From the IMG/VR virus record IMGVR_UViG_2529292882_000015: a stretch of DNA of 39,577 bases; one strand, 5' to 3'. Origin of the DNA: a virus. Taxonomy: Duplodnaviria > Heunggongvirae > Uroviricota > Caudoviricetes. Under the pieces are notes generated by a model. It saw only the letters and a program-made list of their open reading frames with translations. It did not search any database and was not told where the DNA came from. The position numbers were made by a program, and so were the translations under genes. Positions 6,088-33,433 of the stretch are shown here, piece after piece (position 1 is the stretch's first letter; each line of letters begins with the position of its first letter).

Positions 6088-6354
6088 ATTTACATCGCAC
6101 TCCTCTTGTGCCATAGTAGTCGGGCACTGGCAAAATCCAGTGCCGGGATTGGCGTCCCGGGTTACTACAGAGGCACATATGCCGCATAAGCGGTTTTTTT
6201 TATGTGTAAAGCGCACCTATTCTATGGTGGGCTGTGTGGGGGCACCGAAAGGTGCGCCGGGTCCTTTGTAGCCGGTTACGCCAACCCTGCACAGTTCACC
6301 ACCAACCGATTGGCGTCGGTAGTGGTGATTAACCTAACTACAAAGGTGATCACT

Positions 6355-30499: not shown

Positions 30500-31285
30500 T
30501 TACTTGATAAATCCTGCTGCCTTTCCTCGCCTGTATTCCTCCATCAGCCACTGCGCCGGCGTTATTCCCCCCAGGGTGGCGGCGTTAGGCATGCACCCGA
30601 AACTTCGCCCTGGTGGATGGTAAACGTCTCTCCCTGTGTCCGGAGGCGTACTCATTGGTTCTGGCTTTGCCTGTATGCTGATCACCGGATCGGGTATCTG
30701 CTGTCCGGAAGCCACCTTTTTCGCCCAATCATCGAGCAGCCTGCGCGCGTGTTTCTCAACCTCAATCTCGCTAAGCTGGCGCTGATACATTGCACGGCGG
30801 GTATCACATACGACCCAGTACATAACCGGATGTCGCCACGGGAATCTTTCGGGACCACCAGGATATAAACTTTTTTCCTTGCTGTACCGGTGAAACTCCG
30901 CCATCACATCGTCAATGGTGACGCCAAGAACCATCTTGCTGTCTTTACACCACTTGATGAATTGCCCTGGCGACGGCCAGAACGGAGATTCACTGGCGCG
31001 GGCGTGGCGCATACCAGCAGAAACCTGTTCACGGGTTCGGATCCCCCCTTCGGCAAACGCAGCAATCCACTGCTGTTTTGCAGCAACTTCCTGCTCTGGC
31101 GTCTTCAGGTTGGTTACCACTGCCGCCGGAAACAGTTGTTTCAGCTGTTTGAAAAGGGCATCAACAAGCCTCTCTGCTGACATGTTCACCACGTTGTCAT
31201 TGTTGGTGTACTGATGCTCATAACCTGACATGCGAGAAAGGGCTTCTCCGTCACGGTTTTGTATCGCGGTAAAAACGTTGTTCAC
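30500..31285 (-). CDS. Replication protein P-like (helicase loader)
   Basis: Clear similarity to lambda P by memory (WIAAFAEGGIRTREQVSAGMRHARASESPFWPSPGQFIKWC vs lambda WVLAFRENGITTMEQVNAGMRVARRQNRPFLPSPGQFVAWC). Start placed at GTG 31285 (RBS GGAGG, overlaps the O-like stop); the in-frame ATG at 31300 is the alternative. Confidence 0.8.
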   Translation of the reverse strand: MNNVFTAIQNRDGEALSRMSGYEHQYTNNDNVVNMSAERLVDALFKQLKQLFPAAVVTNLKTPEQEVAAKQQWIAAFAEGGIRTREQVSAGMRHARASESPFWPSPGQFIKWCKDSKMVLGVTIDDVMAEFHRYSKEKSLYPGGPERFPWRHPVMYWVVCDTRRAMYQRQLSEIEVEKHARRLLDDWAKKVASGQQIPDPVISIQAKPEPMSTPPDTGRDVYHPPGRSFGCMPNAATLGGITPAQWLMEEYRRGKAAGFIK

Positions 31286-32097
31286 AAGAAATCCTCCCAT
31301 GCTTCAGGGCTGTTCCAGTGCGGAACGTTGTTATCAGGTAATGTTGATTGCTTCTGTCTGCTAATCTGCAGCCGCCTTGCCAGCTTCTGCTCCCACTGTG
31401 CCTGATGGTATGCCTTACCCTCAGCCATCCAGTAAATTCTGAACTCTGCAAGTTCCTGTGCCGTTGGCAGACTGTCCAGGTAGATCCCCTGCAATGAGCT
31501 TTTCCGAAGAAAGTCATCTGATGGTTGCCATTGTTCATGCATGACAAATTTGCCTAATTGCCCTGGCCCACCAGGAGGAACAAAGTTATTCATCACGGCG
31601 TTGTTTGCGCCGGGGTCATTAGGCACAGAATCCCCGCTTTTTGTCCTGCTCTCCCTCTCTTGGTTAAATGACTGGTTATATGACTGGTTCTGGATCCCGT
31701 TTTTGGGATCATTCAACATCCCGTTTTTGGGATCATTCAACATCCCGTTTTTGGGTATATTCCCGTTTTTGGGAACATTACCGTTTTCGGGTTCATTACA
31801 CCCATCTAGGTTGCCTTTAATGTTCCCTTTTTTGGTTATATTAAGAGAGAAAACCCGCACTCTTTTCGTCGCTCCCTTTCTCTCTCCGGTATCTGAAATA
31901 AGCCCCATTTTCATGAGCGATATAAGCCCGGCCTGTACGGTTTTTTTATTCAGGCAAGTGTCTTTAACGAGGCGTTCTATGCTGGGGTAGCAGAGGTTAT
32001 ATTCATCGGCTCTGTCAGCCATCGAGAGCAGTATGAGCTTTAATGACGAGCTACCTGGATCTGTCTCCCAGGCCCAATCTGTTGCATGTCTGCTCAT
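31282..32097 (-). CDS. Replication initiator, lambda O-like, with internal origin iterons
   Basis: N-terminal DNA-binding-like domain; central repeat peptide (NVPKNGNIPKNGMLNDPKNGMLNDPKNG) encoded by the iteron array; directly upstream of the P-like gene; RBS GGAG. Confidence 0.7.
   Translation of the reverse strand: MSRHATDWAWETDPGSSSLKLILLSMADRADEYNLCYPSIERLVKDTCLNKKTVQAGLISLMKMGLISDTGERKGATKRVRVFSLNITKKGNIKGNLDGCNEPENGNVPKNGNIPKNGMLNDPKNGMLNDPKNGIQNQSYNQSFNQERESRTKSGDSVPNDPGANNAVMNNFVPPGGPGQLGKFVMHEQWQPSDDFLRKSSLQGIYLDSLPTAQELAEFRIYWMAEGKAYHQAQWEQKLARRLQISRQKQSTLPDNNVPHWNSPEAWEDFL
31694..31797. repeat. Putative replication origin: five iterons (core CCCGTTTTTGGG) inside the O-like gene
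   Basis: Two exact 24-bp tandem repeats ATCCCGTTTTTGGGATCATTCAAC followed by three degenerate copies. Confidence 0.6.
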
Positions 32098-32112
32098 GAT
32101 TAATCTCCGCTA

Positions 32113-32313
32113 TCAGCTTGAATGTTGTGGGGAGGAATTAATCATGATCTGCTTAATCTCTGCCCTGATGCGACGGTTTGATTCCATGGTGCACTCAACA
32201 CAGTGTCCGTTGTAAACCCAGCGTTCACTGTCATGTCCGTGCTTACATGGTTTTCCGGTGTAGTAGCGTTTAAGTCCGCGCTTTGCGGCATCAATACGTG
32301 TAATGATTTCCAT
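32113..32313 (-). CDS. Small Cys/His-containing protein (possible zinc ribbon), early-right operon
   Basis: 67 aa from ATG 32313 (MEIITRIDAAKRGLKRYYTGKPCKHGHDSERWVYNGHCVECT), RBS AGGG; occupies the position of cII-type genes, but no similarity is claimed. Confidence 0.4.
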   Translation of the reverse strand: MEIITRIDAAKRGLKRYYTGKPCKHGHDSERWVYNGHCVECTMESNRRIRAEIKQIMINSSPQHSS

Positions 32314-32393
32314 GGTAAGCCCTGTTATTAGTATTGGGATTACGGTTATTTTGTGCTGACACAAAAAAAAGATCAACCAGATTTGGTTTTTTA

Positions 32394-32408
32394 TTACCTT
32401 TAAGGTGC
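32394..32408. promoter_or_regulatory. Operator-like palindrome, imperfect (site 8 of 13)
   Basis: TTACCTTTAAGGTGC, between the cro-like terminator and the next gene. Confidence 0.4.
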
Positions 32409-32415
32409 GAATAGA

Positions 32416-32441
32416 TATGAAAAGACCGCCGGATGGCGGTC
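32416..32441 (-). terminator. Rho-independent terminator after the cro-like gene (tR1-like)
   Basis: Minus strand GACCGCC-ATCC-GGCGGTC followed by TTTTCATAT. Confidence 0.5.
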
Positions 32442-32463
32442 TACAGAGGTTTGTGGCTGGATA

Positions 32464-32694
32464 TCATGAGTAGAAGAAGTATGCCAGTTCTGCTTTTGAG
32501 CGCAGCCATTGTCTTGTTTTACAGGCTTTAAAAAGCCCATTCATCAATACTTTACCTGGCATTTTGCGCTTACCTGTTAAGTGAGTCTGGATATAGTGAC
32601 TCGTCGTTCCGGCTTCCTGTGCGAAGGCTTCACGCTCATCCGGAGTAAGTGCAAGCCAGTGCTTTTTGAAATCGAAATGTCCGTTATCGCTCAT
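32464..32694 (-). CDS. Cro-like early regulator (putative DNA-binding)
   Basis: 76-aa protein transcribed divergently from the repressor gene across the operator cluster; a TTGTTA-N17-TATTAT promoter overlaps operator site 9. Confidence 0.5.
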   Translation of the reverse strand: MSDNGHFDFKKHWLALTPDEREAFAQEAGTTSHYIQTHLTGKRKMPGKVLMNGLFKACKTRQWLRSKAELAYFFYS

Positions 32695-32730
32695 AGCTAT
32701 TGCCTGATATTTATTTCAGATAATAAATAT

Positions 32731-32745
32731 TCACCCATAAGGTAA
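32731..32745. promoter_or_regulatory. OR-type operator site (site 9 of 13)
   Basis: TCACCCATAAGGTAA; overlaps the spacer of the minus-strand TTGTTA-N17-TATTAT promoter for the cro-like gene. Confidence 0.55.
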
Positions 32746-32761
32746 CAAAAATCAAGGATAG

Positions 32762-32848: not shown

Positions 32849-33433
32849 ATGAAAAGTATCCAGGACGTCCGCAGGCAAAATCTCAACGACTTGATCGACC
32901 GTGAATTCAATGGTGTTCAGACGCGGATGGCAGAAAAACTTGGAACTCAGGCAAATCTGGTAAACCGCTGGGCTCTTGGCAAGAAGGTTATCGGCGACCA
33001 GGTTGCGCGAAAAATTGAAGCTGCCGCCAATAAACCCCGTAACTGGCTTGATATCGATCGCTCGCTTTCTCAGGAAGGTTTTCAGCCTGTCGGACCGAGC
33101 GACATTGGTCAGCTGGCGGCTCACAACCTGGAACGCTGGATGAGCGAAAGCCGCGACCTTTCAACGCAGGGAAAACTTCACCGCGCATCCGGCGTCGCCC
33201 AGGTGACAATCAGCCGCCTGTTAAACAATGAGGTCAGCGTTTCCATTTCCACCCTGGAGAATGTTGCATCCGCATTCGGGCGTCACGGCTATGAATTACT
33301 GATTCACCCGCACGACCCTGCGACTATCAACTATGACCGCTCGCGCTACGCTTTGTTACCCGAAACCGAGAAAGCAAAGATCGAAAGTTACATTGAATTT
33401 GTCATCAACCAGAACGAAAAAAACAAACAATAA
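32849..33433 (+). CDS. Prophage repressor candidate with two Xre-type HTH domains and no peptidase domain
   Basis: Two HTH-like segments (QTRMAEKLGTQANLVNRWALGKK and LHRASGVAQVTISRLLNNEVSVSISTLENVASAFG); divergent from the cro-like gene across three operators; followed by a terminator and the pL-like promoter; no S24/LexA-like C-terminal domain. Confidence 0.6.
   Translation: MKSIQDVRRQNLNDLIDREFNGVQTRMAEKLGTQANLVNRWALGKKVIGDQVARKIEAAANKPRNWLDIDRSLSQEGFQPVGPSDIGQLAAHNLERWMSESRDLSTQGKLHRASGVAQVTISRLLNNEVSVSISTLENVASAFGRHGYELLIHPHDPATINYDRSRYALLPETEKAKIESYIEFVINQNEKNKQ

Follow-up and report, generated by a model that had tools for sequence, protein, structure and literature searches.

In phage lambda the replication origin lies in the middle of gene O, where each iteron is bent and is touched by the O protein at its outer G residues, and two iterons together with the A/T tract are enough for unwinding (PMC7466680). 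Lambda carries four iterons and Shiga toxin (Stx) phages carry six (PMC7466680). Proteins with an HTH_36 domain have been noted in non-lambdoid replication units of Stx phages, and replication by these units is described as uncharacterised (PMC8951638). In phage P22, an iteron array followed by an A-rich tract lies inside the initiator gene 18 and is annotated as rep_origin in GenBank. A winged-helix N-terminal domain that binds iterons is also found in staphylococcal initiators of the RepA_N type (5kbj, 4pt7 and 4pql, the first of which is titled 'Structure of Rep-DNA complex'). In the RepA_N family, Schumacher et al. reportedly found in 2014 that the rep coding region contains the origin and that recruitment of host replication proteins falls to a separate C-terminal domain. 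Here we analysed a 39,577-nucleotide stretch of viral DNA (IMG/VR record IMGVR_UViG_2529292882_000015, called the window throughout), which is a temperate phage of the phiV10/Uetakevirus type, and within it a repeat array inside the gene of the presumed replication initiator (31282-32097, minus strand, 271 residues). A preliminary description had read five repeats at 31694-31797 as a lambda-style origin within the initiator gene, made up of iterons to which the initiator binds, and several independent comparative tests now support this view. A block of ~220 bp (31630-31845), located in the linker-coding part of the gene, is probably the replication origin of the phage, read by the N-terminal domain of the protein that the same gene encodes.

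The main array consists of five units between 31691 and 31801, with cores at 31780, 31762, 31744, 31720 and 31696, and on the coding strand it reads CCCGAAAACGGT followed by four copies of CCCAAAAACGGG, with spacings of 18, 18, 24 and 24 bp. Four of the five units described previously (31696, 31720, 31744 and 31762) are exact copies of CCCGTTTTTGGG, while ~0.005 exact copies of a 12-mer are expected by simple arithmetic in 2 x 39.6 kb, and the fifth, ACCGTTTTCGGG at 31780, differs from it by two mismatches. In addition, we found a degenerate sixth unit, the first in the coding direction, 45 bp upstream of the main array (31825-31836; CCCTTTTTTGGT on the plus strand, ACCAAAAAAGGG on the coding strand). 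This unit and its 45-bp spacing were kept in 79 of 79 close relatives, and in phiV10, BP9 and YDC107_2 it reads ACCAAAAACGGG on the coding strand, one base nearer the consensus than in the window. The cores are short dyads, (A)TCCC-A5C-GGGA(T), and all units lie on the same strand in the same orientation. The top three tandem arrays that Tandem Repeats Finder reported in the 39.6-kb window have periods of 24 bp (31694-31755; 2.6 copies, 100% match, score 124), 18 bp (31745-31799; 3.1 copies, score 75) and 12 bp (31661-31689; 2.4 copies, score 51), and no other array scored above 42. The four exact 12-mers and these three scores argue that the array did not arise by chance. A count of the motif over the whole window at up to two mismatches (7 found vs 3.3 expected) was not significant alone; the signal is in the clustering and the exact copies rather than in this count. 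The six units extend over 31696-31836 and begin at codon 88, just past the wing (residues 67-85) of the N-terminal domain, and their centres fall at 0, 4.29, 6.0, 7.71, 10.0 and 12.29 helical turns, that is, within ~0.3 turn of a common face of the DNA.

To compare the array across relatives, homologs were fetched with residues 1-89 only, which are encoded upstream of the repeats; this kept the repeats from biasing the search, and the comparison was not circular. Viral contigs supplied 80 near-identical loci for this comparison, and bacterial genomes another 80 that were diverse (40-87% identity); counts in the diverse set refer to the 70 loci with an intact open reading frame (ORF), with repeats scored as copies of a 12-mer, at up to two mismatches, in the 360 nt that follow the domain. 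At least four copies were found after the domain in 62 of these 70 loci, compared with 1/70 in upstream, 0/66 in downstream and 0/70 in shuffled controls. A looser CC-A-rich-GG pattern occurred 11.4 times per kb after the domain vs 1.1 times per kb per strand in the flanks. The DNA consensus of the family is a dyad of ~24 bp, AACAGTCCC-AAAAAC-GGGACTGTT. The 311 units were split 175/92/44 over the three reading frames and encoded 147 different pentapeptides; at 54 of the 70 loci the units were not all in one frame, and common spacings were 17, 22, 23 and 25 bp. In Edwardsiella phage GF-2 the unit is ATCCCAAAATTGGGAT and encodes PKIG, in Vibrio phage H20 it is CCCGAAAACGGT and encodes PENG, and in Acinetobacter phage AP22 the units CCCATATACGGG and CCCAAATTTGGG encode PIYG and PKFG, while EBPR podovirus 1 and Burkholderia phage Bcep176 carry AACAGTCCCAAAAACGGGAC at out-of-frame spacings. 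Since the peptide changes non-conservatively among phages (PKNG, PKIG, PENG, PIYG, PKFG) while the CCC-(A/T-rich)-GGG dyad stays, selection acts on the DNA.

The repeated PKNG peptide noted earlier is present in the window, where all units are in frame, but only in four of the five units, the first being translated as PENG. A conserved peptide repeat was not found across the homologs: the units are in frame only in this phage and its close relatives and out of frame with one another in most other members. The family comparison indicates that the units are DNA elements and that the peptide repeat is only a by-product. Among loci whose N-terminal domains are 99-100% identical, the array varied from ~4 to 8 tandem units, always in steps of 18 or 24 bp, so that in this lineage it can gain or lose units without breaking the frame, and the E. 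coli protein matches, 279 to 311 residues long, are in line with this variation. In YDC107_2, the region 1198-1500 has several iterons with an additional A (CCCAAAAAACGGG), and the annotation splits the initiator gene into pieces, owing either to errors in sequencing homopolymers or to decay of a prophage gene. Most database proteins that match the N-terminal domain are 50-160 residues long, and many are marked 'partial' or come from very short contigs; we suspect that short-read assemblies break at the iteron array.

The array also tracked the N-terminal domain of the initiator. When the family proteins were scanned, HTH_36 was found in 59 of 59, while the C-termini were of several kinds: DnaT in eight, Phg_2220_C in four and DnaA_N in two, with a lambda-O type in GF-2 and a P22-gp18 type in several Edwardsiella, Plesiomonas and Serratia prophages. 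In tblastn comparisons of phages, homology to the N-terminal part ended at residues 139-147, just past a block of 12-bp repeats that follows the iterons, and homology to the C-terminal part began at residues 161-181; because the N-terminal homology stops just past the 12-mers, the origin block appears to travel with the N-terminal domain. The iteron was kept down to ~37% domain identity and across hosts, in phages of Enterobacterales, Acinetobacter, Vibrio and Burkholderia and in an Accumulibacter phage. At 25-31% identity it differed, and phages with an N-terminal domain of another kind lacked it. A different iteron is present in Moraxella phage Mcat8 (31% identity), and Klebsiella phage RothD, whose HTH_36 domain is 25% identical and which has the same DnaT and P partners, carries at the same place four copies of another palindromic iteron, TGCCATCTGATGGCA, spaced 22-24 bp. 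The same-genus phages ZX5, Tyrion and SPN1S combine a DnaT-type C-terminus with a non-HTH_36 N-terminus (no Pfam match), and no intragenic repeats were found in their initiator genes; SPN1S also lacks a P gene. The origins of these three phages must be organised differently. Mainly from this co-variation of iteron and domain, we infer that the N-terminal domain is the iteron binder, and by analogy the pattern is that of the specificity of lambdoid O proteins for their origins. The range of C-terminal domains is as would be expected for an adaptor end that recruits the helicase. The DnaA_N domain binds helicase in DnaA, and its presence as the C-terminal module of two family members (best E 5e-9) would be another route from the origin module to the host helicase. 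In six prophage genes (L148, L159, L160, L164, L166 and L135), a palindrome CCCCC(T/C)A(A/G)CCCCC..GGGGG resembling the end of the P22 origin follows the 12-mers, ~60-90 nt past the arrays, which shows that here an HTH_36/iteron module is fused to a P22-gp18-type C-terminus.

The last iteron of the window is directly abutted by 2.4 copies of a 12-bp repeat (31661-31689; AACCAGTCATAT, AACCAGTCATTT and AACCA on the coding strand). The earlier suggestion that a TGACTGGTT direct repeat may be an accessory site was borne out insofar as it is a DNA element conserved across the family, but its unit is really 12 bp. The block has ~66% A+T over 29 bp and runs into a purine-rich tract, AAGAGAGGGAGAGCAGGACAAAAAGCGGGGAT on the coding strand (31630-31660), that ends in a half-iteron-like GACAAAAAGCGGGGAT (31630-31646), an end that comes within two mismatches of the iteron core in some close relatives. 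The purine-rich tract marks the border between the N-terminal/origin module and the C-terminal module. While phiV10 has one 12-mer unit more than the window, nearly all family loci have the last iteron followed by two to three GAAYC..YCA-type units with a period of 12-13 bp, often leading into an A-rich tract. Within 60 nt past the array, the density of GAAYC was 30 per kb, vs 1.8 per kb elsewhere, and A+T was 62% in the post-array stretch vs 53% in the rest of the gene. RothD retained three copies of GAACCAGTCACT despite its different iteron, and in other frames (TSH / EPVT / EPDS, vs QNQSY / NQSF in the window). Kept across the family, and in RothD with another iteron and other frames, the 12-mer block behaves as a conserved DNA element in its own right; it is a candidate unwinding or accessory element and, by position, would correspond to the A/T-rich unwinding tract of lambda. 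No integration host factor (IHF) or Fis consensus was seen by eye in the 12-mers.

Several smaller features coincide with the array. Three GATC (Dam) sites at 31693, 31707 and 31731 lie within 40 bp, the joint densest cluster in a window whose total number of sites is as expected, and GATCCC is the iteron flank in several enteric family members, with AGTCCC in Acinetobacter members. The clustering is suggestive, and a link to Dam/SeqA control may exist. Neighbouring dyad iterons also form terminator-like hairpins with a T-run at 31704-31723 and 31728-31747 on the plus strand, antisense to the initiator gene; they are probably a by-product of the repeat, although they could block antisense transcription. 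An overlapping plus-strand ORF with FLG repeats (31541-31990) was judged to be a repeat artefact, and no Rfam match was obtained at the locus.

The protein encoded around this array is built differently from lambda O. Pfam assigned HTH_36 to residues 18-67 (E 1.8e-10) and the DnaT DNA-binding domain to residues 184-252 (E 1.2e-15). Residues 1-89, encoded by 31831-32097 on the minus strand and presumed to read the iterons, were modelled by AlphaFold2 as a winged helix of four helices and a beta-hairpin wing (67-85) with a predicted local distance difference test (pLDDT) score above 90. Residues 90-209, which cover everything that the array encodes, had a pLDDT below 50 and are predicted to be disordered, so constraints imposed by DNA sites would be tolerable in this linker. 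Foldseek matched the N-terminal domain to generic winged-helix DNA binders only, including the staphylococcal RepA N-terminal domain on iteron DNA (5kbj) at E ~1e-2. This fold match is weak and generic, with 15-18% identity, and the RepA_N-type initiators further differ in being encoded by plasmids of Gram-positive bacteria, in having unrelated iterons and in lacking a P or DnaT partner. The C-terminal part, residues 180-265 (31303-31560, minus strand), matched chains of E. coli DnaT (primosomal protein 1; 9zbt_D, 6aep, 4ou6, 4ou7 and 2ru8) in a phmmer search of the PDB, with E values of 6.5e-21 to 2.5e-19. The C-terminal 85 residues are thus homologous to the C-terminal domain of DnaT, but the match covers only residues 85-170 of DnaT; in place of its N-terminal part stand an unrelated HTH_36 domain and the iteron-encoded linker, and for this reason the labels 'primosomal protein I' and 'DnaT' are misleading.

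The gene had also been called 'O-like', which holds for its position and presumed role but not for its sequence. Phage_rep_O was found in lambda O and P22 gp18 at 1e-36 to 1e-38, whereas the protein of the window gave HTH_36 and DnaT only. No similarity to lambda O or P22 gp18 was found by BLASTP, and hhalign of the N-terminal domain against Phage_rep_O-type domains gave probabilities of 1-9%, which are not significant, although the same helix-wing segment was aligned. By these comparisons the initiator is neither a member of the lambda O/Phage_rep_O family nor an ortholog of DnaT. P22 differs further in that the partner of gp18 is the DnaB-like helicase gp12, not a P-type loader, and its iterons (TCGGTAAAAC...) are unrelated.

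The layout of the locus is nevertheless close to that of lambda. Both have direct repeats with an internal dyad and G/C tracts flanking an A-tract, spaced by about two helical turns and placed mid-gene just past the DNA-binding domain, with an A/T-richer, purine-asymmetric tract next to them; the purine-rich A/T tract that follows the iterons of lambda is comparable to that of the window. In both, a P-family gene overlaps downstream, the early operon lies under a divergent repressor, and the number of iterons varies between relatives, as it does between lambda and the Stx phages. There are also differences. As proposed earlier, the iteron itself is distinct (ATCCCTCAAAACGAGGGA in lambda vs ATCCCAAAAACGGGAT here), its core being 3 bp shorter, and the units are in frame here but not in lambda. 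A conserved 12-mer repeat stands in place of the long A/T tract of lambda, the N-terminal domain is HTH_36 instead of Phage_rep_O, and the C-terminus is of the DnaT type. The lambda origin has been proven experimentally, whereas the one described here is deduced from sequence. The lambda-like succession of iterons, a short-repeat A/T-richer stretch, a purine-rich tract and an overlapping P-family gene downstream argues for an origin, and the locus combines a winged-helix initiator (AlphaFold2 model), iterons of the same orientation and an iteron that co-varies with the DNA-binding domain, as in iteron-type theta origins.

From sequence and by analogy with lambda, the following mechanism can be proposed. 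The N-terminal HTH_36 domains would bind the six dyad-symmetric CCCAAAAACGGG iterons, and the resulting nucleoprotein complex would strain or destabilise the adjacent A/T-richer 12-mer block, where opening or helicase loading is proposed. The DnaT-type C-terminal domain, tethered by the linker, would contact single-stranded DNA and/or the neighbouring lambda-P-family protein, which would in turn bring the host DnaB helicase. Transcription of the early operon would cross the site, as in lambda, and the PKNG repeat would be a side effect of housing DNA sites in a tolerant linker.

A possible natural counterpart of lambda-dv was found among E. coli plasmids. NZ_CP148379.1 is a circular plasmid of 8,461 bp with a repressor, a cro-like gene, YdaT, a family initiator and a short P-family gene. 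Its initiator has HTH_36 and DnaT domains, with CCCAAAAACGG units followed by GGAACCCAAAG twice, and its cargo comprises an ATPase/HNH pair, DUF5677, hokD and rem. No other Rep-like ORF was found among its ORFs of at least 70 residues, the initiator and P being its only recognisable replication genes, which suggests that the module is a self-sufficient replicon. The module was present in 424 of 5426 complete E. coli genomes (~8%), where its only database label is 'DnaT-like ssDNA-binding domain-containing protein' and no origin is annotated. Two circular E. coli 'plasmids' of 41,027 bp (NZ_CP079771.1 and NZ_CP079768.1) encode an N-terminal domain identical to that of the window and are probably the phage itself as a circular episome. 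A phiV10-like replication region was also found near one end of the records of BP9 (PP488543.1, a 138-kb Vequintavirus record, at 131,937-138,295) and PH444 (115 kb), which may be chimeric assemblies or contamination.

Some observations weigh against placing the origin here. The searchable literature holds no experimental demonstration of binding or origin firing for any family member. Post-iteron A/T richness in the window is only moderate (~66% over 29 bp) and far below that of lambda, and a DnaA-box search of 31300-32200 found a single TTWTNCACA site with one mismatch, TTAGGCACA at 31619. Many iteron plasmids, though not all of them, have DnaA boxes beside their iterons. The GC-skew analysis suggested earlier does give a cumulative minimum at 31-33 kb, but this coincides with the switch in transcription direction and is uninformative. 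NZ_CP148379.1 is a single record of a 49%-identical relative and may be either an artefact of assembly or a circle that was excised, and the three Uetakeviruses that have DnaT-type initiators without intragenic repeats show that an intragenic origin is not genus-wide. Binding sites alone are also no proof of initiation, and the repeats could be initiator sites for autoregulation, titration or copy control, with replication starting elsewhere in the genome, for example where A/T richness is less modest than in the array region: an intergenic stretch at 32320-32420 is more A/T-rich (30-35% GC). We regard this as improbable. That stretch holds a terminator-like hairpin that is an annotated terminator in phiV10, the iteron motif is absent near the operon promoter, and the window contains no other repeat array, with only weak two-copy matches in the flanking 3 kb. 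Furthermore, the conserved iterons, 12-mers and A-rich tract match the anatomy of an origin, and the mini-plasmid NZ_CP148379.1 has this module as its sole recognisable replication genes.

Two further explanations can be considered. In one, the repeats are sites of another factor (a host protein, packaging or partition) or a recombination hotspot at the module junction, unrelated to the N-terminal domain. The N- and C-terminal modules do meet a short way past the repeats, the array contains a cluster of three GATC sites, and the 12-mers persist when the iteron changes and are thus not explained by an iteron-reading surface. However, the iteron follows the N-terminal domain from host to host and changes only when that domain is very divergent, unlike a host-factor site, and the array is absent in sister phages that have another N-terminal domain, making this explanation very unlikely. 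In the other, the array is only a tandem peptide repeat (N-x-P-K-N-G) that makes a flexible linker and has grown by slippage, and its DNA as such has no function. The in-frame units of this phage, the low-complexity segment predicted to be disordered and the slippage-like variation in copy number would all fit. Yet most diverse loci use more than one frame and the pentapeptides are many, with the DNA dyad consensus kept throughout, and residues change non-conservatively where CCC-(A/T-rich)-GGG is preserved. All five array prolines are encoded by the rare codon CCC, which accounts for 7.6% of prolines in the rest of the phage, although the tandem copies within one phage are not independent and this codon argument is weak alone. 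We therefore find a purely peptide-level repeat highly implausible, and an origin in the linker-coding part of the initiator gene remains the preferred reading.

The genes around the initiator are those of a lambda-like early operon. A lambda-P-family gene, the presumed helicase loader (30500-31300, minus strand, 266 residues; Pfam Phage_lambda_P, E 1.5e-56), follows the initiator, its start overlapping the initiator stop by 19 bp. Upstream, the early-operon region (32423-32748, minus strand) contains a promoter-like sequence at 32748-32720, an ORF in the cro position at 32464-32694 and a terminator-like hairpin at 32442-32423, and, on the plus strand, 32849-33433 encodes a divergent HTH repressor. 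The annotation of phiV10 gives the same order: repressor, small ORF, terminator, small ORF, initiator, P and terminator. At the DNA level the initiator gene is 96-99% identical to those of phiV10, vB_EcoP_PAS61 and related phages, and the phiV10 and PAS61 counterparts are labelled 'primosomal protein I / replication initiation protein'. Elsewhere in the window, Rfam at the gathering threshold identified isrK (6124-6200) and C4 antisense RNA (6220-6306) on the plus strand, which we take to be the small-RNA pair of P1/P7-type antirepressor immunity regions, and a tRNA gene lies inside the phage at 24976-25049 (plus strand; Rfam tRNA, 71.7 bits).

The design of an origin within the initiator gene is familiar from lambda and P22, but the cassette of initiator, iterons and 12-mers, and its breadth, appear to be undescribed: literature on the motif string, on HTH_36 or DnaT-like phage initiators and on epsilon15/phiV10 origins held no description of this origin. 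It is quite possible, though short of probable, that HTH_36, CCCAAAAACGGG-type dyad iterons and GAAYC-type 12-mers form a portable cassette, widespread among the phages and prophages of Gamma- and Betaproteobacteria, that recombines with at least five kinds of helicase-recruiting C-termini, and that retention of the 12-mers implies a second reader, a host factor or single-strand recognition, at opening or helicase loading. For practical work, the repeats may break short-read assemblies and split gene calls, and a simple rule follows from the family: dyad repeats and then 12-mers, in the linker past an HTH_36 domain, should locate origins in hundreds of proteobacterial phages. Taken together, these results provide a concrete origin candidate for phiV10-type phages and for the prophage module carried by ~8% of complete E. 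coli genomes, and they suggest that the modular logic of lambda, with origin specificity tied to the N-terminal domain and partner specificity to the C-terminal one, extends to a second initiator family.

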